From Chitinophaga pinensis (lineage in GTDB: Bacteria > Bacteroidota > Bacteroidia > 2-12-FULL-35-15), in contig CAMCUO010000005.1 in NCBI GenBank assembly GCA_945879015.1, positions 1,306-65,305 of the forward strand: a stretch of 64,000 nucleotides of DNA, written 5' to 3'. Both the position numbers and the translations under genes were made by a program. The notes below the pieces were generated by a model, which worked only from the letters and a program-made list of their open reading frames with translations, was not told the DNA's origin and searched no databases. Positions within the stretch are counted from its first letter, which is position 1; every line of letters starts with the position of its first letter. Shown in pieces: positions 13,872 to 33,304 of this stretch.

Positions 13872-14999
13872 ATGGGTATTACTTTTTGTAATCCCCATTT
13901 TGTTTTTTACACCCATTCCATTATTGTGGTCGAACCGATAAACAAACAATTGCATTTCATCATTGGCATTGGACGCTCCGGAACGACCATTCTGAATAAG
14001 ATATTAAATTCTCATCCTTCTATTCACAGTTTACCAGAGGCAAATTTCCTTCTTTTTTTTCTGAACGATTATAAAAATGTAACTCGTTTTACAAAAGAGA
14101 ATATTGAGTTAATGTTTCAGCAGATTAAGATCTTTTCATTGTCGCATCCATTGGTTGGTTGGGAATTGGACATGGAAAATGCAAAGCAAAATCTTATAGA
14201 TATTGTTTCAAAAGGTGAATTGTCCTATGCTACACTTTGTAAAACTATTTATTCTGAAATTAAAGTAACAGGGAAAGACAAGTCAAACGCTACAATGCTG
14301 ATTGATAAAAATCCTGCTTTTACTTTATCAGTTGACCAATTGGAAAAACATTTTCCTGAATCAAAATTTATTTTGTTGGTTAGAGATTACAGAGCAAATG
14401 TATTGTCGAGAAAACAAAATGCTTATTTGAAATCACCTCTTGTGCCTTATAATGCTACTCGTTGGAGAGTTTTTAATCTGATTGCCAATAAGTTTTATCA
14501 AAAGCATAAGAGCAAAGTATTGTTATTGAGATATGAAGATTTGGTGAGCGAATACGATGCATCCATGAAAAAAGTGTTTGCCTTTTTAAATGTGAAAGAG
14601 GAAGATATGAAAGAAACGGACTTGTCGAAAGTGGATGTTTCAAAAATGGAAATTGCTAATGAGCATAAAAAATACTTTTCAAAAAAATATGAAGATTTAA
14701 GTAAGCCAATTAATACCAAGAGAGTAAATGCATGGCAAACAGAATTGAGCAAAGAGGATATTGCTGAGTGTGATACTATTTGTGCGAGTTTTGCTAAAGT
14801 GTTTGGTTATACAGAATTTACTCCTGTTCCTTTTTTCAAAAAAATCGGGATTATCTTAAAGAACATTTTTATTATTATTCCTTCTTATTTAGATATTAAA
14901 AAGGATCAGTTGTTGTACCACGTTTCTGCAAAAACAAAAATGAATGCTTTGATTAAGCGACACGAAACGCTTGGTTTTATTAAGCGTTCAGATTCGTAA
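13872..14999 (+). CDS. PAPS-dependent sulfotransferase
   Basis: 5'-PSB loop GIGRSGTTIL and a 3'-PB-like VRDYRANVLSRK. Confidence 0.75.
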   Translation: MGITFCNPHFVFYTHSIIVVEPINKQLHFIIGIGRSGTTILNKILNSHPSIHSLPEANFLLFFLNDYKNVTRFTKENIELMFQQIKIFSLSHPLVGWELDMENAKQNLIDIVSKGELSYATLCKTIYSEIKVTGKDKSNATMLIDKNPAFTLSVDQLEKHFPESKFILLVRDYRANVLSRKQNAYLKSPLVPYNATRWRVFNLIANKFYQKHKSKVLLLRYEDLVSEYDASMKKVFAFLNVKEEDMKETDLSKVDVSKMEIANEHKKYFSKKYEDLSKPINTKRVNAWQTELSKEDIAECDTICASFAKVFGYTEFTPVPFFKKIGIILKNIFIIIPSYLDIKKDQLLYHVSAKTKMNALIKRHETLGFIKRSDS

Positions 15000-15017
15000 A
15001 TTATACTTAATTATAAC

Positions 15018-15043
15018 GTCACACTGAGCGGAGTCCAAGTGCG
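15018..15043. repeat. Family B short repeat gtcacactgagcggagtccaagtgcg
   Basis: Matches the copy at 3625-3650 at 25 of 26 nt. It lies between the two convergent sulfotransferase genes. Confidence 0.7.
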
Positions 15044-15052
15044 TTATCTTTA

Positions 15053-16096
15053 CTAAATCCGATTCTTCGAAGGAGAAGGCCTGAAGGCTAAAGGTAGCTT
15101 GTATTTTATCTTAATTAAAATTCCCCAGACTGAGGATTTCAAATAACAATAGTTGTAATATAGTTTATCGAAAATAGTAGTTTTTTTTGAAGGAATGTGT
15201 TTCGCATAACCGAATCTCAAAGCCAATTTCTCACAAGCAAAATCAAGCAAAGCAATTTCTTCCGATTTTAATTCATTCACATAAGCATTAACCCTTTCGG
15301 TATTTACCTTTTTTTCCAAATTACCGTGCATACGTTGAATTTTTTCATTCTTTTCCTTAGAAACATTTTCCACCGCATGCTTTTTTATCTCTTTTGAAAG
15401 TTCCTGAAAATTGAGCATTTGCTCGGTATACGGAACATGAATGTAGGAACAAAGCAATTGTAAGTGCTCTGTAGGATCACTTGCCAAGTCTTCATATTTA
15501 ATTAAATGATAGGGAATGTTTTTCGTGGCAAGACATTCAAAAATGCTTTCATAATAATAATTCCAATCGGCTGCCAACTTGTGAATTGGAACATTTTCAT
15601 CCGAATATTTTCTTCTCGATAAAATATTGTCTCTGTAATCTCTAACAATGACAATAAATTTTGCATCAGGAAAGATTTCTGAAATTTTATCAATGTGCAA
15701 AGAGTAAGATGGATTTTTATCGATTACCCAATTCACATTTTTCTTCTCTTTTTGAGATAGGGGGTAATTCAAATAAGCGAGCTTGCAAACATTTGCAAAA
15801 GTTTTATCCTTTAACTGAAGGATATCTTTCTTTAATTCCGGACCGGGTTTCCATATACTTATCACTCTGTTGAAATTTTGGTCGAACATATCAATAAATG
15901 CATCCACTACTTTCTCATCATTAAAATCCTGCTGATGAAAGGTGTGATAAGAGTGCATAATGAATTCGTTTTCTGGACTGGCAATAATCTCAGGATTGGA
16001 ATTGAGTATATTTGTGAGAAGAGTAGTGCCCGAGCGACCCATTCCTACAATAAAGGCAATTTTTGGTAAAGATGATAATGGTTTTAATTCAGTCAT
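15053..16096 (-). CDS. PAPS-dependent sulfotransferase (paralog)
   Basis: GMGRSGTTLL and VRDYRDNILSRRK. Confidence 0.75.
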   Translation of the reverse strand: MTELKPLSSLPKIAFIVGMGRSGTTLLTNILNSNPEIIASPENEFIMHSYHTFHQQDFNDEKVVDAFIDMFDQNFNRVISIWKPGPELKKDILQLKDKTFANVCKLAYLNYPLSQKEKKNVNWVIDKNPSYSLHIDKISEIFPDAKFIVIVRDYRDNILSRRKYSDENVPIHKLAADWNYYYESIFECLATKNIPYHLIKYEDLASDPTEHLQLLCSYIHVPYTEQMLNFQELSKEIKKHAVENVSKEKNEKIQRMHGNLEKKVNTERVNAYVNELKSEEIALLDFACEKLALRFGYAKHIPSKKTTIFDKLYYNYCYLKSSVWGILIKIKYKLPLAFRPSPSKNRI

Positions 16097-16170: not shown

Positions 16171-16197
16171 TCCCTCTGCTTTTTCAAGGAGAGGGAA
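16171..16197. repeat. Family C mini-palindrome (tccctct-gctttttcaagg-agaggga)
   Basis: Inverted repeat read directly, upstream of the MBOAT operon. Confidence 0.45.
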
Positions 16198-16310: not shown

Positions 16311-18854
16311 ATGAGGCTAATTGACAAATATTTTCCTTTAATTTCAGTTACTTCAGAAAATCGGGAGGCGCTTTTCAATATCGATAGGCTTCGTTTTTTT
16401 AGTCTGGCTTTAGCGCAATTTATTTTAATTCTTTTTATTGTTACTCGCTATAATTTTGAAAAGTCATCAGGAATAATCGATTATGCTCCTTATGTTATTC
16501 TAGTATTTGCAATTTATAGTTTTATTGCCATCCGTTTTCGTCCAGCATTTCTATTTCTTGCGTGTGTTGCACTTGTTTATGCAGCATTTGGAATTCTGGC
16601 TGGAAGTTTTTTTATTCTTATCGGATTAGGTTTGATTTTAATTTGTCACTTACCTATAAAATATACTTATCGCTTTGTATTAATATTAGCTATTGCATTT
16701 CTTCTAGCTCTTTTTAGGACAGAATTTATTTACATTCCATGGATGACTATGACTGCTATGTACATGGCTCCATTGTTTATGTTCCGACTCATTATTTATT
16801 TGTATGAAATAAAGAACGGAGTGGTACCTGCAAATAAATGGCAAAGTATCAGTTACTTTTTTATGTTTCCAAATGTGTTCTTTCTCTTCTTTCCAATTAT
16901 CGATTACAAAACCTATATCAAAACACACCTCGATTCACCTGAAAAAGAAATATGGCAAAAAGGAATTCGATGGATGCTGCGTGGATTGATTCACATCATG
17001 TGTTATCGTTTGATCTGTTTTCATTTTTTAATCGGACCAGTTGAAGTAATTGACCTTCCAACAATGTTGCAATACATGGTGGTTAATTATTCTTTGATTA
17101 TCAGACTTTCTGGTGTATTTCATTTTATGATTGGTCTGGTTTGTATGTTTGGATTCAATCTTCCTCAAATATTTGACAATTATTTTACTGCTACCAGCTT
17201 TGTTGATTTGTGGAGAAGAATAAATATTTATTGGAGAAATTTCGTTCTAAAAATATTTTTCTACCCAACAATGTTTAGGTATAAAAAAATTCTGAAAAAG
17301 AATTTGTTGGCTTTTACCATGATGACGGTTTTCTTTATAACCTGGATAATGCATAGTTATCAGTTGTTTTGGATAACAGGTGTAGTTTCTGTTAGATCCA
17401 TAGATGTTATTTTTTGGATGGTGATTGGTGCATGTATAACTACAAATTCGGTAATTGTTGAAAAATATACTTTAGCTGAAGACAGAGTAGAAAAGCCTCA
17501 ATCGGAGTTTAAAAAGTATTTCATGAAAATAATCCGAATGATGGGAATGTTTCTTTTCATGTCAATTATGTGGTCGTTATGGAATACACGTACATTGGAA
17601 GATTGGCTTTTTATTGTTTCAAAAGGAAAACAAGTTGATTCGAAACAGTTACTTCTTATTTTTTCGGTTGTAATTGGAATTATTGGTTTAGGAATTCTTG
17701 TTCAGATGATGTTGAAAAATGTTAAGTTAAAACAGCTTATTAATAGGAAACCGCACGAAACAATTTTATTGACTTTGTCTACACTTACACTTCTAACATT
17801 ATTTTCTTTCAAAGAAATTCGTTCTAATATACCTTTATCAGTGCAACATTTGTACGATCAAATTTCTGATGGTTCAGCTAACAAACTTGAGAAAACAAAT
17901 GCTGAAGCAGGTTATTACGATAAATTGATTGAAGGCGAAGAGGGCAATACAATTGGCATAGGAGGAAGGTCATTAAAAAAGATGGTGAAGAAAAATCCTT
18001 ATACCAATGCTTATATTTATCAAAACAATATTGTAAACCGAAGAATGAAACCCAATCTCAACATTGTTGGTTCGGATCATAATTTTCAAAGTAATAGTTT
18101 TGGAATAAGAGATAAAGAGTATTCTATAAAAAAACCTCTTGGAACAAAACGTTTAGCATTGCTTGGCGGCTCTTATCAAATGGGTTCTGGTGTAAATAAC
18201 AATGAAGTTTTTGAAGCCATTGCAGAAGAAAGAATGAACAAAGAGTTGGTGGATACAAATTATAAAGCTTTTGAAATTTTCAATTTTGCTGCTGGTGGTT
18301 ATTATTTGTTGCAGCATGTTGAAATAGTTCATACATCTGTATTTCAATACGACATGGATGCCTTGGTATATTTTGCGCATACTGATGAAAGAGGCAAAGT
18401 GGTAAAAGATTTTACTACTATTATCAAGAAAGAATTGCCATTGAAATACCCATTTCTTCAGCAAATTGTCAAAGAAAGCGGCATTAAATCTTATATGAGT
18501 ATTTTACAAATAAGAGAATTACTGACTCCATATGCCGATACAATTATGAAATGGGGTTATAAGGAAATATATGAGCAATGTAAAAAGAACAATGTGGTTC
18601 CTGTTTGGGCCTATATGGAAACTACTACTGAGTTTGTTGATGATGCAGAATATAATGAGCTAAAAGCATACGCTGAATCATTAGGTTTTGTAACTTTGGA
18701 TTTACGCAATACCTATGGCAATATTGATAGAGTTGAAATTCAGATTTCGGATTTAAATACTCACCCAAATGTATTAGGACATCGATTGATTGCTGAAAGG
18801 TTTTATAAAGAGTTGAAATTAAAAAGAGATAGTATTTTTAGAATTGTTGAATAA
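16311..18854 (+). CDS. MBOAT-family membrane acyltransferase (DltB/AlgI-like) fused to a C-terminal SGNH/DltD-like domain
   Basis: 847 aa. The N-terminal roughly 470 aa are polytopic, with the MBOAT signatures DLWRRINIYWRNF and the conserved His in FFITWIMHSYQLFW. After 2-3 further TMs, a soluble domain carries LLGGSYQMGSG (block I-like Ser) and DLNTHPNVLGHRLIAERF (block V-like). Confidence 0.75.
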   Translation: MRLIDKYFPLISVTSENREALFNIDRLRFFSLALAQFILILFIVTRYNFEKSSGIIDYAPYVILVFAIYSFIAIRFRPAFLFLACVALVYAAFGILAGSFFILIGLGLILICHLPIKYTYRFVLILAIAFLLALFRTEFIYIPWMTMTAMYMAPLFMFRLIIYLYEIKNGVVPANKWQSISYFFMFPNVFFLFFPIIDYKTYIKTHLDSPEKEIWQKGIRWMLRGLIHIMCYRLICFHFLIGPVEVIDLPTMLQYMVVNYSLIIRLSGVFHFMIGLVCMFGFNLPQIFDNYFTATSFVDLWRRINIYWRNFVLKIFFYPTMFRYKKILKKNLLAFTMMTVFFITWIMHSYQLFWITGVVSVRSIDVIFWMVIGACITTNSVIVEKYTLAEDRVEKPQSEFKKYFMKIIRMMGMFLFMSIMWSLWNTRTLEDWLFIVSKGKQVDSKQLLLIFSVVIGIIGLGILVQMMLKNVKLKQLINRKPHETILLTLSTLTLLTLFSFKEIRSNIPLSVQHLYDQISDGSANKLEKTNAEAGYYDKLIEGEEGNTIGIGGRSLKKMVKKNPYTNAYIYQNNIVNRRMKPNLNIVGSDHNFQSNSFGIRDKEYSIKKPLGTKRLALLGGSYQMGSGVNNNEVFEAIAEERMNKELVDTNYKAFEIFNFAAGGYYLLQHVEIVHTSVFQYDMDALVYFAHTDERGKVVKDFTTIIKKELPLKYPFLQQIVKESGIKSYMSILQIRELLTPYADTIMKWGYKEIYEQCKKNNVVPVWAYMETTTEFVDDAEYNELKAYAESLGFVTLDLRNTYGNIDRVEIQISDLNTHPNVLGHRLIAERFYKELKLKRDSIFRIVE

Positions 18855-18888
18855 TATATTTGTTTGTCAAACTTAAAATATAAAAAAC

Positions 18889-19152
18889 ATGCGTGCAGAC
18901 ATTAACGAAATAAAAGAAACAGTAAAGGCGTTCGTTAATAAACGTTTTTTAAAAAATGCTGAAGGGAAAGAATTAAACTATTCAACTCCTCTCATTTCTG
19001 GTGGTATTATTGATTCGATACTTGCTATGCAGTTGGTTGTTTTCCTAGAACAAACCTACAGGTTTGAATTTCAAGCACACGAAGTTGATAAAGATAATTT
19101 AGATAACATCGATATCATTGCAGGGTTTGTTGTAAAGAAGTTGAATGCATAA
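18889..19152 (+). CDS. Stand-alone carrier protein (PCP/DltC-like)
   Basis: 87 aa. GGIIDSILAMQLVVFLE contains the phosphopantetheine Ser. Its 3' end overlaps the adenylase start. Confidence 0.8.
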   Translation: MRADINEIKETVKAFVNKRFLKNAEGKELNYSTPLISGGIIDSILAMQLVVFLEQTYRFEFQAHEVDKDNLDNIDIIAGFVVKKLNA

Positions 19153-20599
19153 GGTAAATAAGCTATATCAGCTTCTTGAAAATTCGGCAGAACAGTTTCC
19201 GGATAATACTGCTTTAGTTTTGCAAGAAAAAAAGATTAGCTATCAACAATTAGATTCATTAGCTAATAAAATAAAACAAGCTCTTCATTCTATAAACATT
19301 TCTGAAGGAAATCGTATCGCTATTTGCTCTCCTAAATCCATTGAATTTGTCGCCTCTATTTTCGGAATATTAAAAGCTGGTGCTGCTTATGTTCCTGTTG
19401 ATTATAATTCACCTATTGAACGCAATAATTTTATTATTGAAAATTGTGAAGTAGCTGCAATTATTATTACTAAAGACTTGTTAGAAAATTTTAAAAATAA
19501 TTTTACGTTTTTCGCAGATATTGGAATTGATTTAGTTTTAGCAAAAAGCAATAAGGTAACATTAAAAAAATCTTCTGAAGATTTATCCTATATTCTATAT
19601 ACTTCAGGCTCAACGGGAAATCCAAAGGGTGTAATTTATACCAATGCTGGAGCACTTGAATTTATCAATTGGAGTTCAAATACTTTTTCTCCCACTTCGA
19701 GTGATTGTTTTTCGTCGCATGCGCCTTTTCATTTCGATCTTTCTATTTTTGATTTATATGTTTCTATAAAGCATGGAGCAACTTTGGTTCTGATAAAAGA
19801 AGAAGTGGCGAAACAACCTATGCTATTGGCTCAATTAATTTCAGAACAAAAAATTAGTATTTGGTATTCTACTCCTTCAATTCTAATAATGCTTTCGGAA
19901 TATGGCAAAATGGAAAAGTATAAGTATGATAGTTTGAGATTGATATTATTTGCTGGTGAAGTTTTCCCAATTGTCAAATTAAATACATTAAAGAAAAAAG
20001 TTAAAACATCGGTTTTTTATAATCTTTATGGACCAACAGAAACAAATGTTTGTACGTATTATCAATTGCCTGAAAATATTGAAACAAATATTCCGATTGG
20101 AAAAGTATGCGAACATTATCAAGCCTGTGTTGTTGGTGATGAGCTTTTAATTAGCGGAAAAGGTGTGATGTTGGGTTATTGGAATGTTCCTGAAAAAGAT
20201 AATTTTTGGAAGGACCAAGAAAATAGATTTTGGTACAAAACGGGTGATTTGGTAGATGTTGCAGAGAGTGGAGATTATATCTTTAAAGGCAGAAGAGATA
20301 GAATGGTGAAGCGCAATGGTTATAGAATAGAATTGGATGAAATAGAAACAGGATTAAGTAAACATCCCGATATTGTTATTGCGGCTGTTGTCAGTAAGAA
20401 CAATGAAGAAGAGCAAATGATTATTTCTGCCTTTGTTGTTTTAAGAAATACTGAGCAAAAATCAGTCATAAAAATGAAGGAATATTGTATGAATCACTTA
20501 CCTTCGTATATGGTTCCCAACGACTTTATTTTTGTTGAGGATTTGCCACAAACATCAAGCAATAAAGTGGATTATCAGAAATTAAAACAATTAGCCTAA
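19145..20599 (+). CDS. Stand-alone NRPS-type adenylation enzyme (DltA/PltF-like amino acid--carrier protein ligase)
   Basis: All A-domain cores are readable: LKAGAAYVPVD, LYTSGSTGNPKGV, FHFDLSIFD, NLYGPTETNV, YKTGDL, GRRDRMVKRNGYRIELDEIE, LPSYMVP, NKVDY. Confidence 0.85.
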   Translation: MHKVNKLYQLLENSAEQFPDNTALVLQEKKISYQQLDSLANKIKQALHSINISEGNRIAICSPKSIEFVASIFGILKAGAAYVPVDYNSPIERNNFIIENCEVAAIIITKDLLENFKNNFTFFADIGIDLVLAKSNKVTLKKSSEDLSYILYTSGSTGNPKGVIYTNAGALEFINWSSNTFSPTSSDCFSSHAPFHFDLSIFDLYVSIKHGATLVLIKEEVAKQPMLLAQLISEQKISIWYSTPSILIMLSEYGKMEKYKYDSLRLILFAGEVFPIVKLNTLKKKVKTSVFYNLYGPTETNVCTYYQLPENIETNIPIGKVCEHYQACVVGDELLISGKGVMLGYWNVPEKDNFWKDQENRFWYKTGDLVDVAESGDYIFKGRRDRMVKRNGYRIELDEIETGLSKHPDIVIAAVVSKNNEEEQMIISAFVVLRNTEQKSVIKMKEYCMNHLPSYMVPNDFIFVEDLPQTSSNKVDYQKLKQLA

Positions 20600-21747
20600 T
20601 GGAACTTTCCTTATCAACAGAGCAAATGCTTATCCAGGAAAACATTATTGGTTTTGCTCAAAAAGAATTGAATAATAATATTATTGAGCGCGATAAAAAC
20701 CAGCAGTTTTTACCTGAATTATGGAAAAAATGTGCGGAACAAAAACTTACTGGATTACCTGTTGAGGAAAAATTTGGTGGTGCTGGTTTAGATCCTATTT
20801 CTTCTGTTTTAGCATTGGAAGCATTGGGTTATGGCTCCGATGACGGTGGTTTGAATTTTTCTATATGTGCACATTTATTGGCTTGTGTTGTTCCTATCTG
20901 GAAATACGGAAACGAAAATCAAAAGAAAAAATACTTGCCTGATTTATGTAATGGAAAAAAAATTGCTGTAAATGCAATGACAGAAAGCGAATCGGGTTCG
21001 GATGTTTTTAATATTAAAACAACTGCTAAAAAGCAGGATAATGGATTTGTGATAAACGGAACAAAAACGTTTTGTTCAAATGGTCCAGTTGGAGATATAA
21101 TTTTAGTTTATGCGCTTACTGATGAAAGCAAAGGGTATTATGGTGGAATTACAGCTTTCATTGTAGATAAAAATGCAAAAGGATTTAAAGTCGGTCAGAA
21201 ATATGAGAAAATGGGTTTGCGCAGTTCGGGTATTTCTGAAGTAATATTTGAAAATGTTTTTGTTTCAGAAGAAGATATGGTTGGAGGATTTGGTGGTGGA
21301 GCAACGGTGTTTAATCATTCGATGGAGTGGGAGCGAACTGGTATGGCAGCTTTGCATGTTGGAACCATGCGCAAGTTGCTTGAAAAATCAATTGATTATG
21401 TTCAAACACGCAAATCAGGAAATGAAGTAATCGGTAAAAAACAAGCTATCGCTCATCGCATTGCAAATATGAAAGTTCAATTGGAAGCAGCTTCTTTGCT
21501 TACTTATAAAGCTGCATTAGGATTAGAAAAAAATAAAGAGAACATGATTCATGCAGCTTCAGCTAAACTTTTTGTGAGTGAAGCATTTGTTGCTGCTGCG
21601 ATTGATACCATGCAACTTTTTGGTGGAAATGGTTATATGACAGAATACGGTATTGAAAGAATTGTGCGAGATGCTCTTGGAAGTACTGTTTATTCTGGCA
21701 CATCCGATATTCAACGTAACATCATTTCTCGTTTGCTTGGATTGTAA
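20599..21747 (+). CDS. Acyl-CoA dehydrogenase-family flavoprotein, probably acting on a carrier-bound substrate
   Basis: 382 aa with the ACAD fold length. The C-terminal RDALGSTVYSGTSDIQR has Ser where MCAD has the catalytic Glu, and a Glu is present in SMEWER (IVD-like position). Start shares nt 20599 with the adenylase stop. Confidence 0.8.
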   Translation: MELSLSTEQMLIQENIIGFAQKELNNNIIERDKNQQFLPELWKKCAEQKLTGLPVEEKFGGAGLDPISSVLALEALGYGSDDGGLNFSICAHLLACVVPIWKYGNENQKKKYLPDLCNGKKIAVNAMTESESGSDVFNIKTTAKKQDNGFVINGTKTFCSNGPVGDIILVYALTDESKGYYGGITAFIVDKNAKGFKVGQKYEKMGLRSSGISEVIFENVFVSEEDMVGGFGGGATVFNHSMEWERTGMAALHVGTMRKLLEKSIDYVQTRKSGNEVIGKKQAIAHRIANMKVQLEAASLLTYKAALGLEKNKENMIHAASAKLFVSEAFVAAAIDTMQLFGGNGYMTEYGIERIVRDALGSTVYSGTSDIQRNIISRLLGL

Positions 21748-21790
21748 AATATTTAGTATTTTAGCGCTAGTTCTCGATACTACTAAATTT

Positions 21791-23179: not shown

Positions 23180-23201
23180 ATAGCATTGTGCACCCATTCG
23201 T

Positions 23202-23325
23202 GAGAGATTGCCACATCCCGCGAAAATGCGGGACTCGCAATGACGCTCTGTTATGTGGTTATCGCTTTTAGAACGTCATTGCGAGGCACGACCCGAGCAT
23301 TCGGGGCGGGATGTGGCAATCTCTC
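23202..23325. repeat. Family A composite palindromic element, second copy, units in swapped order
   Basis: gagagattgccacatcccgcgaaaatgcgggactcgcaatgacgctct, then a 21-nt spacer, then gaacgtcattgcgaggcacgacccgagcattcggggcgggatgtggcaatctctc. It lies between convergent genes. Confidence 0.85.
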
Positions 23326-23349
23326 CAATATTGCGAAGACCAGTCACCC

Positions 23350-24850: not shown

Positions 24851-25537
24851 ATGTCTGAATTCGAATTTACAAATAAAAATCCTAAGTTCTTTTATGATTC
24901 TGCTCAGTTTCCTTTTTTGAAGCCATTGCTTGATAATGTTGGGGTTATTCGAAAAGAGTTGCAAGATATTATTGCTTCAGGAAAGGAAAATCAATGGATG
25001 AATACGTTTCCACATTATGTAAAATCTGACGAGCACAAAGCTTGGAAGGTATTTTCATTTTTGTTCTTTAATATGAAGCTTCCCAACAACGCAAAATTAT
25101 GTCCGAAAACGGCTGAACTCATTTATTCTATTACAGAGATTCTTTCTTGTGATTATTCTTATATGAATCCAGGAACTCATGTGCTGCCTCACAAAGGTTA
25201 TTCACGAATGGTTTTACGTTGTCACATTGCTTTGATTGTTCCAGATGAGGAACTTTGTGCTTTACGTGTTGGAAATGAAATTAAACATTGGAAAGAAGGC
25301 GAACTTATAATTTTTGATGATTCATTTGAACATGAAGCATGGAATAGATCCGACAAAAGAAGAGTTGTTTTAATGTTTGATATTCCAAATCCCCTTTGGG
25401 GATATACTGCTCATGAAATTTCAAAATATAAAATTGATAAAATTGATGATCCTTTTCTTTTATCGATGGCTCCCAAAGATGAATGGATAAAAGCGTTTGA
25501 AAAAGGAATTTTTCCTTTGGAGAGTTTTAAAGATTAA
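24851..25537 (+). CDS. AspH/LpxO-family dioxygenase, paralog 3
   Basis: LPHKGYSRMVLRCHIALIVP and FDDSFEHEAWN. It is divergent from paralog 2 across a 44-bp spacer containing TATATTTG (24821-24828). Confidence 0.75.
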   Translation: MSEFEFTNKNPKFFYDSAQFPFLKPLLDNVGVIRKELQDIIASGKENQWMNTFPHYVKSDEHKAWKVFSFLFFNMKLPNNAKLCPKTAELIYSITEILSCDYSYMNPGTHVLPHKGYSRMVLRCHIALIVPDEELCALRVGNEIKHWKEGELIIFDDSFEHEAWNRSDKRRVVLMFDIPNPLWGYTAHEISKYKIDKIDDPFLLSMAPKDEWIKAFEKGIFPLESFKD

Positions 25538-25602: not shown

Positions 25603-26526
25603 TTATTTCTTCTTCACAAAAACTTTCTTCACCAAACCAACCGCTTTCTCAACAACTAAACCTACAATAATTCCAGCAAGGACACAGGATAGTGCTTTTA
25701 TAAACCAGGCCAAAGCAGACATGTTAGCCAAAGTGTGTTCGAGATCGTGAATTAAATTGGCAGAAAATTCAAAGCCGTGAGCAATGATTTCTGCACCCAC
25801 CCAAAGCATGGCTGCGGTACCCACATAACTCAAAATTTTTAGGAAATGCGGCATGAACCTGACAAGACCAAGTCCGAATTTTTGCAGGACAGGATGAAAT
25901 TTATCCTTGGCTAAGTGAAGTCCTATGTCGTCTGCTTTAACAATCAATCCAACAAATCCGTAGACTGCAATAGTAATAAAAACACCAACAGCCAGCATCA
26001 CCAAAATCTGCTTCATCATTGGCTGGTCGGTGACATAACTATAAGCAATGGCAATAATTTCTGCGGAGAGAATAATGTCAGTGCGAACCGCACCTGTAAT
26101 CCTTTCTTTTTCCAATTCATCTGGCGTGATGACTTTTACTTCATCCATTGTTAGAGGCAGATCAGGATGTTTGCTAAACATTGAATGCAACTTTTCGTAC
26201 CCTTCGAAACATAAATAAGCTCCACCTAACATTAAAATTGGTGTGATTGCCCAAGGAGCTAAGTACCCGAGCAACAAAGCTGCAGGAGTTAAAATAAGAA
26301 GTTTATTTATGAGAGATCGTTTGGCAATCCTGTAAATGATAGTTAGTTCACGTGATGGATCGAGTCCAACAACGTACTTTGGCGTAACGGCTGTATCGTC
26401 AATGACAATGCCCGAAACCTTCCCGCTAGTTTTGATTACCTGTGCAGGTACATCACTCAAGTTGGCTGCAGTTGTTTTTACTAAAGCTGAAATATCATCT
26501 AAAAGTGCAAAAAAACCCGAAGCCAT
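25603..26526 (-). CDS. DUF808 (YedI-like) inner-membrane protein
   Basis: 307 aa, polytopic, with N-terminus MASGFFALLDDISALVK typical of the family (recalled, not searched). Confidence 0.55.
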   Translation of the reverse strand: MASGFFALLDDISALVKTTAANLSDVPAQVIKTSGKVSGIVIDDTAVTPKYVVGLDPSRELTIIYRIAKRSLINKLLILTPAALLLGYLAPWAITPILMLGGAYLCFEGYEKLHSMFSKHPDLPLTMDEVKVITPDELEKERITGAVRTDIILSAEIIAIAYSYVTDQPMMKQILVMLAVGVFITIAVYGFVGLIVKADDIGLHLAKDKFHPVLQKFGLGLVRFMPHFLKILSYVGTAAMLWVGAEIIAHGFEFSANLIHDLEHTLANMSALAWFIKALSCVLAGIIVGLVVEKAVGLVKKVFVKKK

Positions 26527-26584: not shown

Positions 26585-27196
26585 TTAGAGCAAAGCATTT
26601 ATCGCCTCCATATTCTCATCACAAACTTCACCGCTAAATTTTAATTCCGCATTTTGATCGCTCAAAATTGCAGCAGCTTTATTTAGTTTTGCACCAATTG
26701 TTTTGTAGTCATCCACGTGCAATTCGTATAATTGATTGTCCACATGCTCTTGATCTGACAGTAATTTGTAGCCAAGTAACTTGTTGTAATGAATGGCTCT
26801 ATCATTGTCGCTCAATATTCTGATACGAGAAATTTTGCTGACATTTAATTTTAAAAACATAAAATTCAAAAGACACAATGTTGCAAAAACGGCTGCAAAG
26901 GAGCTGATGTAGTCTTTGTCACTAATAAAAATTCCTCCTTCGCCAAATCCTAAGCCTACATCATAATTTTTTGCATTGATGAGTCCAACTTGTTTGCCTT
27001 CAAATTCAATAATAAAATAATAATTGTTTCTGTTGTTTACGGATTTGAACCAAATTTTTTGAGCTTCAGGTGTAATGAAATTACGGTATTCCATGTAATT
27101 AGCAATATCACTTTGGTTTCTCCAATTACGAACCATCTCAATATCTTTTTCTTGCACTCTTACAAGCCGAACGCCATATTGTTCAAGAACTAACAT
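26585..27196 (-). CDS. GNAT-family N-acetyl/acyltransferase (PseH-like size)
   Basis: 203 aa with an N-terminal RLVRVQEKDIEMVRNWRN typical of sugar-N-acetyltransferase GNATs. Start overlaps the GT2 stop. Confidence 0.6.
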   Translation of the reverse strand: MLVLEQYGVRLVRVQEKDIEMVRNWRNQSDIANYMEYRNFITPEAQKIWFKSVNNRNNYYFIIEFEGKQVGLINAKNYDVGLGFGEGGIFISDKDYISSFAAVFATLCLLNFMFLKLNVSKISRIRILSDNDRAIHYNKLLGYKLLSDQEHVDNQLYELHVDDYKTIGAKLNKAAAILSDQNAELKFSGEVCDENMEAINALL

Positions 27197-28107
27197 ATGA
27201 TTTCGTCTTCGTTATAGGAAGGCGCATTGTTCAAAGCTTTTAACATCTGACTTATATATTGTGCGACAATTCCAATGCAGAAAATAATTATACCTGTAGA
27301 AAAAAGAATACTTACAATCAAAGAAGTATAACCTTCCACATCAATTTTTAAGTAAAACTTTTTAATGATGTAAAAAATTCCAATAATGAAATTGATAGTA
27401 GCTAAACTAAATCCAATATAGGTTACCAATTTTAATGGTAGAGTAGATGAAAACATGATGATGGTAGAAGTCATCTTAAACAATCCTGCTACTTTGTAAC
27501 GTTGCTTATGTATGTAATCAGGATTTGCATTTACATCTACAAAGGCTAATTTTTTTGTGTACCATAAACACAATTCATCAATAAAAACAAATTGTTTGTG
27601 ATTGTGTACCAACTTATCAGTCAGTGATTTTTTTAATAATCTAAAACTGCTTCCTTTTCCTTTTTGTGGGCCTTCCAGCTTTGCTAGTATTTTATATGCT
27701 CCAGAAAAAATTCCTCTAAAAAAAGGTTGATTTTGTTTTGGATACAATCCATAAACCAGATCAGCATTTGTATTTTTTTGATTATCGATTAGCTTTTGAA
27801 TTTCTGAAGGGTGAACTTCTAAATCATCATCAATGGTAATAACAAAATCTCCTTTCGCATGTTTGAAGCCACAAACAGTAGCTCCGTGCTGACCGAAATT
27901 TTTACTTAAGCGAATAATGGTTGTGTTGGATGAACTTGCTTTTATTTTTTTTAATACTTCCCAGCTATTGTCGGTACTACAATCATCCACAAAAATAATT
28001 TCGTAGGAATATTTGTTTTCAAAAAATGAAACAATGCTTTGGTGCACCTTCTCAAGTGCATTTTCAGAACCATAAACTGGAATAACTATGCTATAGTTTG
28101 TGCTCAT
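27190..28107 (-). CDS. Family 2 glycosyltransferase, polyprenyl-phosphate sugar transferase type (ArnC/GtrB-like)
   Basis: IVIPVYGSE...IIFVDDCSTDNS, a DxD in TIDDDLEVH, and two C-terminal TM helices. Confidence 0.75.
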   Translation of the reverse strand: MSTNYSIVIPVYGSENALEKVHQSIVSFFENKYSYEIIFVDDCSTDNSWEVLKKIKASSSNTTIIRLSKNFGQHGATVCGFKHAKGDFVITIDDDLEVHPSEIQKLIDNQKNTNADLVYGLYPKQNQPFFRGIFSGAYKILAKLEGPQKGKGSSFRLLKKSLTDKLVHNHKQFVFIDELCLWYTKKLAFVDVNANPDYIHKQRYKVAGLFKMTSTIIMFSSTLPLKLVTYIGFSLATINFIIGIFYIIKKFYLKIDVEGYTSLIVSILFSTGIIIFCIGIVAQYISQMLKALNNAPSYNEDEIIC

Positions 28108-28847
28108 ATTTTACTATTTAAAAGTAATCCACCATCCATTTTTATAACTGTTCCAGTAATTCTTTTTGATGCGGCACTTAATAAAAACGCAGCAGTATTT
28201 GCAACATCAATTGGTTCACTTATTCCAAGTGGGTAACGACTTTCAATTTCTGCAAATTCTTCTTTTGAATAAATTTGCTCTGCTTGTTCCAAAATTTTTG
28301 TCCGAACCAGACCAGGAGCAATGGTGTTTACTCGTATTTTTTTAGAAGCTGTTTCCAAAGCCAATCCTAAAGCAAAAGACTCTAATGCAGCTTTTGATGC
28401 AGTATAAAGCGAACCTCCCGTGTATGGATGATTTGCAGAAATGGATGAAATGAAAACAACTGATGCTTCGTTATTTAATTTTTTTGCAGATAATAATCCA
28501 CTACTCAGCAATACAGCCGATGAAAAATTTATTTTAAAAAGTTCATCAATGTGTCTTGATTTTAAAAACTTTATTGGAAGTGGATTGATAATTCCAGCAC
28601 AATGAACGAAACCATCAATAGCAGGTATTTTAGAAATCAAATAATTAATTTCCTCTTCGTTTGACAAATCAGCAATAAAAAAGCCTGCTTTATTTTTTAA
28701 TAATGCTTTTGTTTTATTTAATTCATCAGCATTGCGACCAGTGATAATGATATTAGCACCCAAAGAATCACACAATTGCGCAGTTGCTCTTCCTATTCCA
28801 GAAGTAGCACCAGTCACCAAAATTGTTTTATTCTCAAGCTCTGTCAT
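28104..28847 (-). CDS. Short-chain dehydrogenase/reductase (FabG-like ketoreductase)
   Basis: VTGATSGIGRATA and YTASKAAL (YxxxK). Confidence 0.8.
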   Translation of the reverse strand: MTELENKTILVTGATSGIGRATAQLCDSLGANIIITGRNADELNKTKALLKNKAGFFIADLSNEEEINYLISKIPAIDGFVHCAGIINPLPIKFLKSRHIDELFKINFSSAVLLSSGLLSAKKLNNEASVVFISSISANHPYTGGSLYTASKAALESFALGLALETASKKIRVNTIAPGLVRTKILEQAEQIYSKEEFAEIESRYPLGISEPIDVANTAAFLLSAASKRITGTVIKMDGGLLLNSKI

Positions 28848-29892
28848 ATTCTAAAAGTTTTGTATAAACATTTTCGGTTTCTAAAATAACACTTCCCCAG
28901 GAATATCCAACTCCGAAACCACTCAATAACAAAGATAATTTTTTTGTTCGTAATGCTTCTTTCATTTTGTAGCACATGGTTAATGGAATAGAAGCGGAGC
29001 TAGTGTTCCCAAAAACATCTATAGAATAAGGCACTTTTTCAAGATCTATTTTTAATTTTTTTCTCACACTTTCGTTGATGAGCTTGTTGGCTTGATGCAT
29101 AACGAAGTAATCTGTATTCTCTTTTGATTTATTACTTTTTTCATAAAGTGTAGTAATATTTGAAGCCGCTTCTTTCAATGCAAAATTAAAAACATCCATT
29201 CCATTTAAAATCAAATGCTTTTTTGCTCTACTAATTCCTGGTTCAATTTCTACTAAATCTTCCAATGTTTTATCAAACGGTGTTCTGCAACTTCCATGTT
29301 CAATTATGATTGCATTTTTTCCGGAGCCATCGCTTTGTAAATTAAAATGCATTTCATTTTTAGTTTGTGAATGCTCTATCAATGTTGCGGTTCCTGCATC
29401 TCCAAAAAGTGGATAAGTGCTTTTATCGGTATATGTTGTAGATGTAGATGACTTATCTCCAACTATCAATAAGCCTTTTTTTAATTGTCCGCTTTGCATT
29501 AAGTTGGTGATTACCGACAATCCATAAACATATCCAGAACAACCTAAGCTGATATCAAATGCGATACAATCTTTTTTTAATCCTAAACGGTTTTGTAATA
29601 AAATGGAAGTCGCTGGTAAAATATAATCGGGTGACTGAGAAACAAAAATCAGGACATCAATTTCTTCAGCACAATTATATTTATCTAATAAATGTTTAGC
29701 TGCTGTAAAACATAAATCGGAGCAAGCAACATCTTTAGCGGCAACTCTTCTTTCTTTTATTCCAGTAGTTTTTGCAAATAATTCTCTTTCCTCAACTGAA
29801 ATATGATTGTAATCGGCAGTTTTTTCTATGTGAGTTGGCACACAGCTGGAGATTGCAATAATATTCGTTTTAGTAGTAGATAGATAGGCCAC
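28834..29892 (-). CDS. KAS III (FabH)-like ketosynthase, copy 2
   Basis: Cys-His-Asn triad contexts: SLGCSGYVYG, MHQAN, GNTSSASIP. Confidence 0.8.
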   Translation of the reverse strand: MAYLSTTKTNIIAISSCVPTHIEKTADYNHISVEERELFAKTTGIKERRVAAKDVACSDLCFTAAKHLLDKYNCAEEIDVLIFVSQSPDYILPATSILLQNRLGLKKDCIAFDISLGCSGYVYGLSVITNLMQSGQLKKGLLIVGDKSSTSTTYTDKSTYPLFGDAGTATLIEHSQTKNEMHFNLQSDGSGKNAIIIEHGSCRTPFDKTLEDLVEIEPGISRAKKHLILNGMDVFNFALKEAASNITTLYEKSNKSKENTDYFVMHQANKLINESVRKKLKIDLEKVPYSIDVFGNTSSASIPLTMCYKMKEALRTKKLSLLLSGFGVGYSWGSVILETENVYTKLLEYDRA

Positions 29893-30129
29893 TTATTTTA
29901 ATTTTTCGATAGTAATATTATAAAGATCTTGGATTGTTTGTGCCGATTTTAAATCAGCGCCATTTAATAATGCATTAAAATTCGCATCAATGTATGCAAT
30001 GATAATTAAGGCATGCATACTGCTCCAACCTTTTATACTTCTAAAGTTTGTAGCGGAGCTAAGAGTCCCAGGTTCTAAATCTTCAAATTCAACTTCTAAA
30101 CCTTTCGTAAATTCTTCTATGCTATTCAT
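29893..30129 (-). CDS. Acyl carrier protein
   Basis: 78 aa. KGWSSMHALIIIAYID has the Ser attachment context. It abuts the downstream KASIII with no gap. Confidence 0.7.
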   Translation of the reverse strand: MNSIEEFTKGLEVEFEDLEPGTLSSATNFRSIKGWSSMHALIIIAYIDANFNALLNGADLKSAQTIQDLYNITIEKLK

Positions 30130-30165
30130 AAATGTAAATATATTAAAATATACAATTCAAGATGA

Positions 30166-31179
30166 CTATAGCTCAATAATGGTTGCACCCCAAGACAAAC
30201 CGACTCCAAATCCTGCGAGTAATATTTTTTGTCCTGGTTTTGCTTTTCCTGATTTAATGGCTTCACTTAATGTAATGGGGATGCTTGCAGCAACTGTGTT
30301 TCCAACACCTGCCATGTAATTAAAAACTTTTTCCTCCGGAATTTTCATTTTTGTTCGTATGGAATTAATCAAAAATAAATTCGCTTGATGAAAAATAAAA
30401 AGATCAACGTCTTCGATATTTAATTTTTCTTTCGCCAATAAATCTTTAATCATTGCTGGAACAGTTTTTAATCCAAAATGAAAAACTCCAGCACCGTCCA
30501 TGTGTAAATTAGCATCGGTAGTCACATTTCCGTGTTCATTTTCTATTTCAATAAAAGAATTTTTTGAAATTGGATTTCTTGCACCACCATCTCTGATGAT
30601 AATTTTTTCTGCCATTTTTCCATCTGTTCCAAAAACGAATGAACTAATGTTAGCATTTTTTTTACCAGACGAAATGAGCGTTGCAGCTGCACCATCACCA
30701 AAAACAAATTTTGAACTTCTATCTTTTTTATGAATATTTTTTGTGAGTGTTGAAGAAGTAATTAGCAAAACATTTTTCAATCCCAAAGACTCAATCATTC
30801 CTTTTGCCATCCCTAATCCATATACAAATCCGCTACAACCTAAACTGTAATCCATTGCTCCAGCATTTATTGGAAGCCCTAATTTTGCTTGTATGATAGA
30901 GGCAGAGGCAGGAAACATGTAATCAAACTCCAAAGCACAAAAAAGTAAAAAATCAATTTCTTCAGGTTTAACTTTGTGTTCTTTGAAAAGTGCTAATGCT
31001 GCTTTAACAGCAAGATCAGAAGCTGTTTCATTTTTAGCTACTATATGCCTTTCAACAACTCCAATTCTTGCATAGTTTTCTTTTTGAGAAACAGTTGCAG
31101 GAAAAGCTTTGAAAAAATCTGTATTACTATAGATTTTTTCGGGAAGATAATAACTGATAGCTTTTATGAATGCCGACAT
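30166..31179 (-). CDS. KAS III (FabH)-like ketosynthase, copy 1
   Basis: SLGCSGFVYG, FHQAN, GNTVAASIP. Confidence 0.8.
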   Translation of the reverse strand: MSAFIKAISYYLPEKIYSNTDFFKAFPATVSQKENYARIGVVERHIVAKNETASDLAVKAALALFKEHKVKPEEIDFLLFCALEFDYMFPASASIIQAKLGLPINAGAMDYSLGCSGFVYGLGMAKGMIESLGLKNVLLITSSTLTKNIHKKDRSSKFVFGDGAAATLISSGKKNANISSFVFGTDGKMAEKIIIRDGGARNPISKNSFIEIENEHGNVTTDANLHMDGAGVFHFGLKTVPAMIKDLLAKEKLNIEDVDLFIFHQANLFLINSIRTKMKIPEEKVFNYMAGVGNTVAASIPITLSEAIKSGKAKPGQKILLAGFGVGLSWGATIIEL

Positions 31180-31309
31180 CTTTGTAAAATGAATAGAAAA
31201 TATTTAAAAAGTGTTTATGACAATTTTCGAATTAAAAGTACAAAAATACTTTCTCATCTTGGGAAAAACTTAATTATATTTGGTGGGTAAAGAATTGTAT
31301 AGAATTTCA

Positions 31310-33304
31310 ATGAAAAAGAACAAAGTAAAGGAAGCCCCTAAGCCTGAAAAAAAGATTGTTGAAAACGTGTTCAGTGAAAAAAAATTGAATCGTAGAATAA
31401 TTTTATTTTTTGTGCTTTTATGTTTTTTGGTTTACGGGAAAAGTATCAAGAATAATTATTCTATGGATGATGAGTTTGTTGTTAGAAATAACCAACAAGT
31501 TCAAAGAGGAATTGAAGCAATACCTGAAATTTTTAGAACAACCTATGTTGTAAATAGTCAAAAATCGAACTACGAATATCGTCCAATTGTTAAAGCATCA
31601 TTTGCGTTAGAGTGTGAGTTTTTTGGAGTAAATCCACATGTTAGTCATTTCATAAATGTGTTGCTTTATACTTTAGCGATAGTATTGCTTTACATGACTC
31701 TCAAGGCTTTACTGTCGAAATACAATATACTTCTTCCTTTTATAATTACGACTTTATTTTTGATTCATCCATTGCATTCCGAAGTTGTAATAAGCATTAA
31801 AAATAGAGATGTTATTTTAAGTTTTACAGGATTTATTCTTTCCATATTCTTTTATTTAAAATTCATTGAAACAAAAAAATATTATCACTTATTTTTCGGA
31901 GTATTTTTTATTCTTTTTGGATTGATGTCTAAAAAAGATGCGATGACCATTGTTGCTATTATTCCCTTTACTCTTTGGTTTTTAAAAGATGTTTCTTTCA
32001 AACGAATGATTCCAATTTTTATTTCTTACATATTTCCAATTCTCATTTATCGATTTGCAAACAAAATTGCGAATCATAATTTTTCGAGAAAAACATTGGA
32101 TTGGGAAAATCCTTTATATCTGGGTTCAACTTTAGCGGATCGTATTCCGAGCGGATTTTATAGCATTTATTTTTATCTAAAAATGTTTTTAATTCCGCAT
32201 CCGCTTGTTTCCTACTATGGCTACAATCAAGTGCCTATAGCTACTTGGTCGAATGCAATTGTATGGATTGTTTTAATCGGATTAATAGGCGTAGGTTATT
32301 ATGTAATTAAAAATTTCAAAACAAAAGGAATTGAAATTTTTGGAATTCTATTCTTTTTAGTAACCATTTCAATGTTTACAAATGTGTTGGTTCCAGTTGT
32401 AGGTATTGTAGGTGAGCGATTTGCATTTATTCCATCACTAGGATTGTGTTTTATATCAGCTTGGGCTTTGTTTAAAGGTTTTAAAATTGCTTTTGAAAAC
32501 AAAGAATTGAAATTTCCAGCACTTTCAAGTCCGATTTTCGTGACTTTAGGTTTAGTTGTTTTGCTATTTAGTATCCGTTCATTTGTTAGAATAAAAGATT
32601 GGAAGGATACATTTACTTTGTATCAAACAGATGTTAAAAATGCTCCAGAATCGGCTCATGCCAACTCATTGATAGCAGCAGCATCCATTCAAAAGATTAA
32701 GGAAAATGAAAAAATGAGCATAAATCAGAAACGATTTTATGTTCAAAATGCGGAAAAATACTATTTAGAATCCATTCGCATTATTCCAGACTACATCTCT
32801 TCCTTAAACAATTTGGGAATGATTTATTACACCTATTACAATCAGCCTGAAAAGTCGATTCCCTATCTTAAAAAGGCAATATCATTAGATACAAATTATG
32901 TGGAAGCATACTTTAACTTAGCGACTTGTGAAGCAAAGGGGAAAAACTATGTTGAAGCAGAAAAACATTACCTGAAATCAATAGAAATTGACTCCAATTT
33001 TGTGAGCACTTATTTTTCATTAAGCGCCATGTATGCGGAAGAAAAGAAGTATGATGAAATTTTAAAATTGAATCAAAATGCTATAGATAAAGGGGTTAAG
33101 GCAGATGTATTGCATGTGAATATTGGTAATGTTTATTTCATGAGAAAGGATACAATTTCTGCAGTACCGCATTTTGAAGAATGCATACGTTTGAACTCAA
33201 ATAACAGGTTTTTGAACTCGTTTTTGGCCAATTATTTCAAAGAAAAGGGTGATTTAGTGAAAGCGAACAAATATTATGACTTGATGGGGGCTTCAAAACG
33301 TTAA
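31310..33304 (+). CDS. GT-C-like polytopic membrane protein (PMT/ArnT-like) with C-terminal TPR repeats
   Basis: About 11 TM segments. An acidic first-loop motif YSMDDEFVV follows TM1. The C-terminal roughly 200 aa hold TPR repeats (NNLGMIYY..., AYFNLATCE..., TYFSLSAMY...). ATG at 31310 is preferred over the GTG at 31280. Confidence 0.65.
   Translation: MKKNKVKEAPKPEKKIVENVFSEKKLNRRIILFFVLLCFLVYGKSIKNNYSMDDEFVVRNNQQVQRGIEAIPEIFRTTYVVNSQKSNYEYRPIVKASFALECEFFGVNPHVSHFINVLLYTLAIVLLYMTLKALLSKYNILLPFIITTLFLIHPLHSEVVISIKNRDVILSFTGFILSIFFYLKFIETKKYYHLFFGVFFILFGLMSKKDAMTIVAIIPFTLWFLKDVSFKRMIPIFISYIFPILIYRFANKIANHNFSRKTLDWENPLYLGSTLADRIPSGFYSIYFYLKMFLIPHPLVSYYGYNQVPIATWSNAIVWIVLIGLIGVGYYVIKNFKTKGIEIFGILFFLVTISMFTNVLVPVVGIVGERFAFIPSLGLCFISAWALFKGFKIAFENKELKFPALSSPIFVTLGLVVLLFSIRSFVRIKDWKDTFTLYQTDVKNAPESAHANSLIAAASIQKIKENEKMSINQKRFYVQNAEKYYLESIRIIPDYISSLNNLGMIYYTYYNQPEKSIPYLKKAISLDTNYVEAYFNLATCEAKGKNYVEAEKHYLKSIEIDSNFVSTYFSLSAMYAEEKKYDEILKLNQNAIDKGVKADVLHVNIGNVYFMRKDTISAVPHFEECIRLNSNNRFLNSFLANYFKEKGDLVKANKYYDLMGASKR

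Follow-up and report, generated by a model that had tools for sequence, protein, structure and literature searches.

What does a bacterium build with a locus that combines a membrane acyltransferase, enzymes of pyrrole biosynthesis, sulfotransferases and glycosyltransferases? We addressed this question for positions 13872-33304 of a 64,000-nucleotide stretch of DNA (hereafter the window) from Chitinophaga pinensis (GenBank assembly GCA_945879015.1, contig CAMCUO010000005.1). An original prediction, made from the sequence alone, had described the locus as an inserted envelope-modification island. Our analyses suggest that it is probably a modular toolkit for the decoration of envelope glycans, the core of which would be a Dlt-like, carrier-dependent transmembrane acylation system that uses proline-derived (halo)pyrrole-2-carboxylate. 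The core cassette in the window consists of five genes (16311-23179), encoding an MBOAT-SGNH fusion protein, a carrier protein, an adenylase, an ACAD-family dehydrogenase and a halogenase.

The MBOAT-SGNH fusion protein

The first gene of the cassette (16311..18854, plus strand) encodes an 847-aa protein. Searches gave no Pfam, NCBIfam or PDB sequence match, and phmmer and profile searches against the PDB returned only marginal SGNH hits. Because identification by sequence failed, structure prediction was needed. An AlphaFold2 model with 89 homologs as input had a predicted local distance difference test score (pLDDT) of 87.6 and a predicted template modelling score (pTM) of 0.80. In Foldseek searches with this model, the N-terminal domain matched DltB best (6bug_C, E = 8e-7; 8jem), followed by HHAT and PORCN, and the C-terminal domain matched SGNH esterases (TM-score normalized to the target, TMt, ~0.75). 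The fusion of an MBOAT with an SGNH domain, which had been proposed in the original prediction, is thus borne out by the model. Residues 1 to ~440 form the DltB-like MBOAT core and are followed by two transmembrane helices, a flexible loop and the SGNH domain (~565-847).

Across 92 homologs, drawn from at least 10 phyla, His348 (nt 17352-17354), Tyr536, Ser621 (nt 18171-18173) and His818 (nt 18762-18764) do not vary; Tyr535 and, in the SGNH domain, Asn658 are likewise invariant. His348 is the candidate catalytic histidine of the MBOAT domain, while Ser621 and His818 belong to SGNH blocks I and V. The sole low-confidence stretch of the model, residues 520-560, follows the two transmembrane helices behind the core and holds an invariant GYY[ED]xL motif, within which the loop residues Tyr535-Tyr536 are encoded at nt 17913-17918. 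MBOAT/SGNH pairs pass the acyl group to the tyrosine of an FxYxxF motif (2025 study, PMC12148441). The GYY[ED]xL motif aligns with the C-terminal FYYFRF or FIYFEF of canonical MBOATs in related loci, which places Tyr536 at the acyl-tyrosine position as a candidate acyl-shuttle residue. From this alignment, the entire acyl relay appears to be held in a single polypeptide.

The family to which the fusion protein belongs has no Pfam or NCBIfam model. A phmmer search of 1.84 billion representatives collected 774 clusters at 50% identity (E <= 1e-30), nearly all of which are ~820-900 aa in length.

A predicted thiotemplated cassette for the acyl donor

The four genes downstream of the fusion gene, all on the plus strand, encode, by homology, a thiotemplated proline-to-(halo)pyrrole cassette, which would name the exported acyl group. 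The original prediction had missed this chemistry. For all four cytoplasmic proteins, the best solved homologs come from thiotemplated pyrrole pathways.

The carrier protein (87 aa, 18889..19152) has its phosphopantetheine site at Ser43 in the sequence GGIIDS, and Asp42 and Ser43 are invariant. The family profile ranks 6cxt_A, PltL and PigG above DltC. An assignment as 'ACP_for_OlsHI', a carrier of the planctomycete ornithine-lipid pathway, was rejected, as the NCBIfam score (75 bits, cut-off 130) indicates only a family-level resemblance.

The stand-alone adenylation enzyme (484 aa, 19145..20599; TIGR01733, 317 bits) is predicted to be specific for L-proline. Its top stand-alone PDB match is PltF (6o6e, 273 bits, versus 199 bits for DltA). 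The 10-residue specificity code read off the PltF alignment, DLFYLALVCK, is identical to that of PltF (DLLYLALVCK) at nine of ten positions, whereas it differs from DltA (7vhv) at positions 278, 301, 322 and 331. With the DltA equivalog model, the enzyme reaches only 284 bits (cut-off 560), which speaks against D-alanine specificity. Among 54 adenylase homologs encoded beside MBOAT-SGNH genes, 25 carry the exact PltF code and 12 the code found in the window.

The ACAD-family protein (382 aa, 20599..21747) is a putative prolyl-carrier-protein dehydrogenase according to its NCBIfam and PDB matches. It scores below the cut-offs of both the PigA model (418 bits, equivalog cut-off 500) and the RedW model (381 bits, cut-off 650), and its top PDB matches are AnaB (4irn), 6cxt_B and PigA (5zw0).

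The last gene of the cassette encodes an FADH2-dependent halogenase (462 aa, 21791..23179; PF04820). Judging from the gene call in the related locus L081 (L numbers denote loci of relatives), its start is most likely the ATG at 21791 and not the TTG at 21653 of the mechanical open reading frame (ORF). The PDB matches are 8zop, CndH, Mpy16, CmlS, Bmp2 and PltA. The GxGxxG motif, a lysine aligned to K76 of CndH and the WxWxIP motif are present and are also kept in at least 16 cassette-linked homologs. In L163, a locus syntenic with that of the window, the halogenase gene is absent and the ACAD gene is directly followed by the dioxygenase genes (L163:1945-3802). Halogenation is therefore an optional addition even within the clade of the window.

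Distribution and linkage in other bacteria

A scan of one genome per species gave more than 573 relatives. The best 80 span Bacteroidota, Rhodothermales, Ignavibacteria, Calditrichota, Gemmatimonadota, Chloroflexota, Planctomycetota, Acidobacteriota, Beta- and Gammaproteobacteria (including Accumulibacter), and others. The fusion protein, carrier, adenylase and ACAD recur jointly in at least 10 phyla. Neighbors were counted in 39 loci that extend 5 kb or more to either side of the fusion gene: the carrier gene is present in 33, the adenylase gene in 32, the ACAD gene in 31, all three in 29 and the halogenase gene in 13. The four-gene cassette stands alone in Proteobacteria; one example is L080, which belongs to a cultured isolate, Pseudothauera rhizosphaerae.

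In three separate lineages of Bacteroidota, the cassette is found together with sulfotransferases. L008 has a single co-directional 16-kb operon with all parts, in the order KASIII, acyl carrier protein (ACP), KASIII, SDR, GT2, GNAT, dioxygenase and three sulfotransferases, followed by MBOAT-SGNH, carrier, adenylase, ACAD and halogenase. The cassette, the sulfotransferases and the block from KASIII to GNAT stay linked despite changes of order and strand in L008, L010, L011, L022, L088, L096 and L105/L106. In other loci (L124, L111, L113 and L133), the KASIII/ACP/SDR block is found with GNAT and sulfotransferase genes; L124 and L133 additionally have the GT2 and GT-C/TPR genes, and L124 has three dioxygenase genes. 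In these four loci and in L143, a canonical MBOAT and a DUF1574 protein replace the proline cassette. The acylation module can therefore be exchanged between loci.

The KASIII block was surveyed separately by a metagenome scan seeded with the second KASIII protein of the window (KASIII b). The KASIII-ACP-KASIII-SDR block is present in 38-40 of 40 longer loci, and the 78-aa ACP has a tblastn match in all 40, usually beside the KASIII genes. GT2 and GNAT genes accompany the block in 20 loci, dioxygenase genes in nine, the GT-C/TPR gene in eight, sulfotransferase genes in seven and the proline cassette in five. This block is a wider, independent module. The original prediction had treated the whole locus as a single unit and had called for a comparison with relatives to see whether it is present or absent as such. 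The linkage of its parts holds across rearranged relatives; the cassette and the KASIII block also occur separately, and the DUF808 gene of the window is found in none of the relatives examined. The locus is thus not an indivisible whole.

Two relatives have other layouts. In L059, on a Saprospiraceae chromosome (L059:9893-17548), three tandem MBOAT-SGNH paralogs (848, 845 and 843 aa) are followed by a single set of carrier, adenylase, ACAD and halogenase genes. Ahead of the paralogs lie genes for six sulfotransferases, for a GT4 and a GT8, for the permease and ATPase of a Wzm/Wzt-type ABC-2 transporter, and for a methyltransferase. In L045, sulfotransferases, a GT4 and a GT4-sulfotransferase fusion lie near the MBOAT-SGNH gene. 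Behind the latter, in place of the proline genes, come the gene for a FAAL-like AMP-binding/PP-binding fusion of 681 aa and that for a canonical MBOAT ending in FIYFEF (L045:12456-15953). The layout of L045 suggests that some members of the MBOAT-SGNH family can accept acyl groups not derived from proline.

In many relatives (L001, L006, L007, L008, L026, L078, L084, L091, L104, L124 and L163), the locus directly adjoins genes for large PKD/Ig proteins that bear the CHU_C signal for type IX secretion, often beside the GT-C/TPR gene. Examples are L163:12728-20461, L124:489-2492 and 5262-8630, and L008:17557-20535; none lies inside the window locus. These proteins could be glycosylation targets.

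Other genes of the locus

Upstream of the cassette lie two sulfotransferase genes. Sulfotransferase 1 (375 aa, 13872..14999, plus strand; PF13469, 97 bits) has the 3'-phosphoadenosine 5'-phosphosulfate (PAPS)-binding motif GRSGTT, and its orthologs adjoin the cassette in L001-L007, L009 and L010. Sulfotransferase 2 (347 aa, 15053..16096, minus strand; PF13469, 112 bits) is replaced at the same position in L008 by three sulfotransferases of other Pfam families.

Downstream of the cassette are three dioxygenases of the Asp/Asn beta-hydroxylase family (PF05118): dioxygenase 1 (237 aa, 23350..24063, minus strand; 146 bits), dioxygenase 2 (247 aa, 24063..24806, minus strand; 136 bits) and dioxygenase 3 (228 aa, 24851..25537, plus strand; 148 bits). 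Dioxygenase 1 is OlsC/LpxO-like, with an OlsC score of 104 bits, which is far below the cut-off of 450. One copy is present in L008, L011 and L022, and three copies are present in the syntenic clade and in L124.

A DUF808 membrane protein (307 aa, 25603..26526, minus strand; PF05661) is encoded between dioxygenase 3 and the GNAT gene only in the lineage of the window itself. No homolog was found in the locus of any relative examined, including the syntenic L002, L083 and L163, where there is no room for it at this position. DUF808 is therefore probably a passenger outside the system.

The next genes, all on the minus strand, end with the KASIII block. The GNAT acyltransferase (203 aa, 26585..27196; PF13302) scores 51 bits with the PseH model, below its cut-off. 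The GT2 polyprenyl-phosphate glycosyltransferase (305 aa, 27190..28107; PF00535) has two C-terminal transmembrane helices and is ArnC/GtrB-like, with scores below the cut-offs for both ArnC (119 bits) and PgfS (116 bits). The SDR (247 aa, 28104..28847; PF13561 and PF00106) is a FabG-like ketoreductase. KASIII b (352 aa, 28834..29892; NF006829, 254 bits, cut-off 249) has the residues Cys118, His266 and Asn296, and KASIII a (337 aa, 30166..31179; NF006829, 279 bits) has an intact Cys-His-Asn triad. Between them is the gene for the ACP (78 aa, 29893..30129), with Ser37 in the sequence GWSSM. This protein has no Pfam hit; its family profile matches ACPs (2ehs, E = 1e-6), and the invariant Ser37 aligns with the serine of the DSL motif. 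A flexirubin (DarB) assignment of the KASIII genes was rejected, since their DarB scores of 25 and 49 bits fall far short of the cut-off (550) and no DarA homolog was found.

The last gene (31310..33304, plus strand) encodes a PMT/TMTC-like GT-C glycosyltransferase with a ~450-aa membrane domain, an invariant Asp63-Asp64 pair and C-terminal TPRs. Its start is probably the ATG at 31310 and not the TTG at 31280 of the mechanical ORF, because the homologs are 664 aa long.

Genomic setting

The locus lies between a UvrD helicase gene (10828-13251) on the left and rpsL (33640) on the right. A check of the ORFs of the window found 18 at 13872-33304, all of them real. Pfam and NCBIfam confirm the sulfotransferases, the adenylase, the ACAD, the halogenase-like flavoprotein, the PF05118 proteins, DUF808, the GNAT, the GT2, the SDR and the KASIII enzymes. 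Library scans were insufficient for the 847-aa, 78-aa and 87-aa ORFs, which were tested separately by a structure model and family profiles. In the original inventory of 17 genes, every family call stands and the count does not, as the genes listed sum to 18; its two distinct carrier proteins are recovered by the family profiles as an 87-aa carrier of the peptidyl carrier protein type and a 78-aa ACP. Its list of absent functions is also correct: Pfam and NCBIfam scans found no regulator, transporter, condensation domain, polyketide synthase (PKS) module or thioesterase among the 18 ORFs.

The guanine-plus-cytosine (GC) content of the window is ~33%. That of the locus is 0.328, compared with 0.330 and 0.341 for the flanks, and the per-gene distance in codon usage to the flank pool is no greater than that among the flank genes themselves (p = 0.14), so there is no compositional sign of an island. 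In L163, on a 2-Mb contig, the gene order and the site are identical at ~60% protein identity, and the locus ends beside rpsL-rpsG-fusA. L163 differs from the window in lacking the halogenase and DUF808 genes and in having a gene for a 2577-aa PKD/CHU_C protein before rpsL. UvrD also adjoins the locus in L001, L002, L006, L007, L008 and L009. Conserved synteny, together with GC content, GC at third codon positions and codon usage, led us to reject horizontal acquisition. The locus did not arrive recently as an island, and the view of it as an insertion has to be abandoned. Between UvrD and sulfotransferase 1 lies the gene of a small secreted protein (136 aa, 13441-13851), which has a signal peptide and matches no family; its position is kept in L001, L002, L007 and L009.

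Palindromes had been placed at the operon boundaries near 15018, 16171 and 23202. All are real, and they are unrelated to each other: that near 15018 is imperfect and that near 16171 is a simple hairpin. The third (inverted repeat I1, 23200-23335), a GC-rich nested palindrome resembling a repetitive extragenic palindromic (REP) element, has no strand and lies between convergent genes. Its core, TCGCAATGACG, recurs at 7768 and 7879 (5 hits versus 0.6 expected). The copy at 7768-7889 makes it look like a dispersed intergenic element of the REP type or of the miniature inverted-repeat transposable element (MITE) type, and it is not specific to the locus. A single repeat family marking the module borders was accordingly rejected.

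A sigma-70 promoter scan gave 88 sites, versus 86.7 in shuffled sequence, and an intrinsic terminator scan gave 7, versus 10.6. These scans are at or below shuffled expectation and are therefore uninformative on operon structure.

Proposed pathway and alternative explanations

We propose a pathway in five steps, the first four of which we infer from the fold and motif assignments described above. In the first step, the PltF-like adenylase would load L-proline onto Ser43 of the 87-aa carrier, as its specificity code indicates. The ACAD would then convert prolyl-S-carrier into pyrrolyl-2-carboxyl-S-carrier, in line with its homology to AnaB, PigA and the dehydrogenase of 6cxt. In the third step, the flavin halogenase would chlorinate or brominate the carrier-bound pyrrole. 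The loaded carrier would next dock onto the DltB-like MBOAT domain from the cytoplasmic side, and His348 would catalyze transfer of the acyl group to Tyr536 on the flexible outer loop, an internal version of the FxYxxF shuttle. Ser621 of the fused SGNH domain would take over the acyl group and esterify a hydroxyl of an extracytoplasmic acceptor. The fifth step, which concerns the nature of this acceptor, is the least secure. In this lineage, the most likely acceptor is a sugar unit that carries sulfate and that the products of the neighboring genes would make. The GT2 may load the sugar onto polyprenyl phosphate, and the GT-C/TPR enzyme may transfer it in the periplasm. More speculatively, KASIII, ACP, KASIII and SDR may make a short hydroxyacyl chain that the GNAT attaches, and the OlsC/LpxO-like dioxygenases would hydroxylate and the sulfotransferases would sulfate the product.

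The machinery supports an assignment to the cell envelope instead of a released metabolite, because a DltB-like MBOAT-SGNH protein fed by a carrier is encoded together with a polyprenyl-phosphate GT2 and a GT-C/TPR enzyme. The original prediction of an envelope-attached product is upheld in this respect. A sulfated glycan is suggested as the acceptor because the cassette sits among sulfotransferases in the clade of the window, L008, L059 and L045, and among glycosyltransferases in L059 and L045.

Several points weigh against this proposal. All of its support is computational, from sequence and predicted structure. The window locus has no flippase, initiating phosphoglycosyl transferase or polymerase that would define the acceptor. 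In most phyla the four-gene cassette is found alone, for example in L080; genes for the acceptor must there lie outside the locus, and it could be something other than a sulfated glycan. Many loci with the KASIII block have no MBOAT gene within 10 kb. Within the fusion protein, the GYYExL shuttle motif departs from FxYxxF at positions 1 and 4, and the usual aspartate of SGNH block V is not conserved. The ACAD, which falls below its equivalog cut-offs (418 versus 500 bits), could halt at pyrroline-5-carboxylate as AnaB does, although the four-electron pyrrole product is favored by the presence of an arene halogenase. Finally, no pyrrole-acylated polysaccharide was found in the literature searched.

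Among the alternatives, the one that survives best, while still unlikely, is that the cluster makes a released small molecule, either a pyrrole with halogen substituents or a glycolipid that bears sulfate and a pyrrole acyl group. The MBOAT-SGNH protein would then off-load and export it, with the SGNH domain hydrolyzing the acyl intermediate outside the membrane. Such a role would account for the missing thioesterase and transporter, and the same four cytoplasmic enzymes are known from the pyoluteorin, prodiginine and bmp-type pathways. SGNH domains are hydrolases in most families, whereas the known bacterial MBOAT/SGNH pairs work as transferases on polymers (PMC12148441). Many genomes have the cassette by itself, without evident genes for an acceptor, but in Bacteroidota it lies among glycosyltransferases and sulfotransferases, together with a Wzm/Wzt-type polysaccharide exporter in L059. 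Its interchangeability with the canonical MBOAT/DUF1574 pair also argues against release, and the three fusion paralogs that share one donor set in L059 fit several acceptor positions better. A still less probable alternative places the acceptor in lipid A or the lipopolysaccharide core, with the locus as a remodeling set similar to ArnC/ArnT with LpxO and AlmEFG-type aminoacylation. Least probable of all is a chance proximity of unrelated sub-operons: the cassette and the KASIII block are each widespread without the other, DUF808 is clearly a passenger and the halogenase is missing from the otherwise syntenic L163, but the linkage outlasts inversion and reordering (L008, L010, L011, L022, L088, L096 and L105/L106), L008 unites all parts in one co-directional 16-kb operon, and sulfotransferases join the cassette in three Bacteroidota lineages with an analogous acylation module substituted elsewhere.

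Beyond the decoration of envelope glycans in this one lineage, we tentatively suggest a broader reading, about which we are somewhat doubtful: the fusion protein may define a widespread second Dlt-like pathway that esterifies carrier-made pyrrole-2-carboxylate, halogenated in about one-third of the loci, to surface glycans of Gram-negative bacteria, which in Bacteroidota would be sulfated. These glycans may sit on type IX-secreted PKD/CHU_C proteins glycosylated by the PMT-like GT-C/TPR enzyme. If this is true, aromatic and sometimes halogenated acyl esters would be a new class of substituents on bacterial surface glycans. The presence of the MBOAT, the shuttle tyrosine and the SGNH domain in one chain should then ease structural study of the acyl relay, and the predictions would be directly testable with a few recombinant proteins. 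Tools that mine biosynthetic gene clusters might class such loci as producers of proline-derived pyrrole metabolites, though the product may stay on the cell.

Comparison with known systems

In agreement with the original prediction, no description of this combination of functions was found in the searchable literature. A match to a characterized O-antigen or pigment cluster, which would have spoken for a known system, was not obtained: no initiating phosphoglycosyl transferase, Wzx/Wzy or Wzm/Wzt is encoded among the 18 ORFs of the window, and the DarB scores are far below the cut-off. The window locus differs in this from classical O-antigen and capsule loci, although the Saprospiraceae locus L059 does have a Wzm/Wzt-type pair.

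The GT2 with two C-terminal transmembrane helices and its pairing with a GT-C enzyme resemble the three-component glycosylation systems GtrA/GtrB/GtrC, ArnC/ArnEF/ArnT and CsbB/GtcA/YfhO. Unlike in those systems, no flippase gene was recognized in the locus, the GT-C enzyme has a PMT/TMTC-like TPR architecture, and the two genes are linked with the KASIII/ACP/SDR/GNAT genes as well as with those for dioxygenases and sulfotransferases.

The cassette shares four protein families and the adenylase code with thiotemplated pyrrole cassettes (PltF/PltL/PltE/PltA, PigI/PigG/PigA, Bmp1-4 and CloN3-5). In these known cassettes, the pyrrolyl group is taken over in the cytoplasm by a PKS, ketosynthase, thioesterase or soluble acyltransferase, and the product is a diffusible metabolite. 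In the present family, by contrast, the sole conserved partner is the membrane MBOAT-SGNH protein. No PKS, ketosynthase, condensation domain or thioesterase for such a hand-over is conserved beside the cassette, and the block to which the KASIII genes belong is absent from the cassette in other phyla.

With the O-acetylation systems PatA/PatB and AlgI/AlgJ/AlgX, the fusion protein shares the MBOAT fold, the candidate catalytic histidine, the proposed acyl-tyrosine shuttle after two extra transmembrane helices and the SGNH transferase domain (PMC12148441). In related loci, the equivalent position is held by canonical members that end in FxYxxF. The O-acetylation systems use acetyl-CoA and two separate proteins, and MBOAT/SGNH pathways apart from Dlt, these included, have no carrier protein (PMC12148441). 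A further difference is that the MBOAT-SGNH family has no Pfam MBOAT hit at all.

The closest parallel is the Dlt system of teichoic acid D-alanylation in Firmicutes (DltA, DltC, DltB, DltX and DltD). There, as is proposed for the locus, an adenylating enzyme charges a small carrier, an MBOAT with a catalytic histidine carries the acyl group through the membrane, and an SGNH protein with a catalytic serine delivers it to a surface polymer. The locus is predicted to use proline, oxidized and halogenated on the carrier, in place of D-alanine. Its MBOAT and SGNH domains are one polypeptide, with no separate DltD, and its hosts are mostly diderm bacteria without teichoic acids. No DltX-like gene was noted among the conserved neighbors, where small ORFs were not specifically searched, and the internal GYYExL loop is proposed to act instead. 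In the literature searched, carrier-dependent MBOAT/SGNH acylation of a surface polymer is described only for teichoic acid D-alanylation. The MBOAT-SGNH family, which is large, phylogenetically broad and present in cultured strains too, would couple such a Dlt-like system to the chemistry of secondary metabolites.

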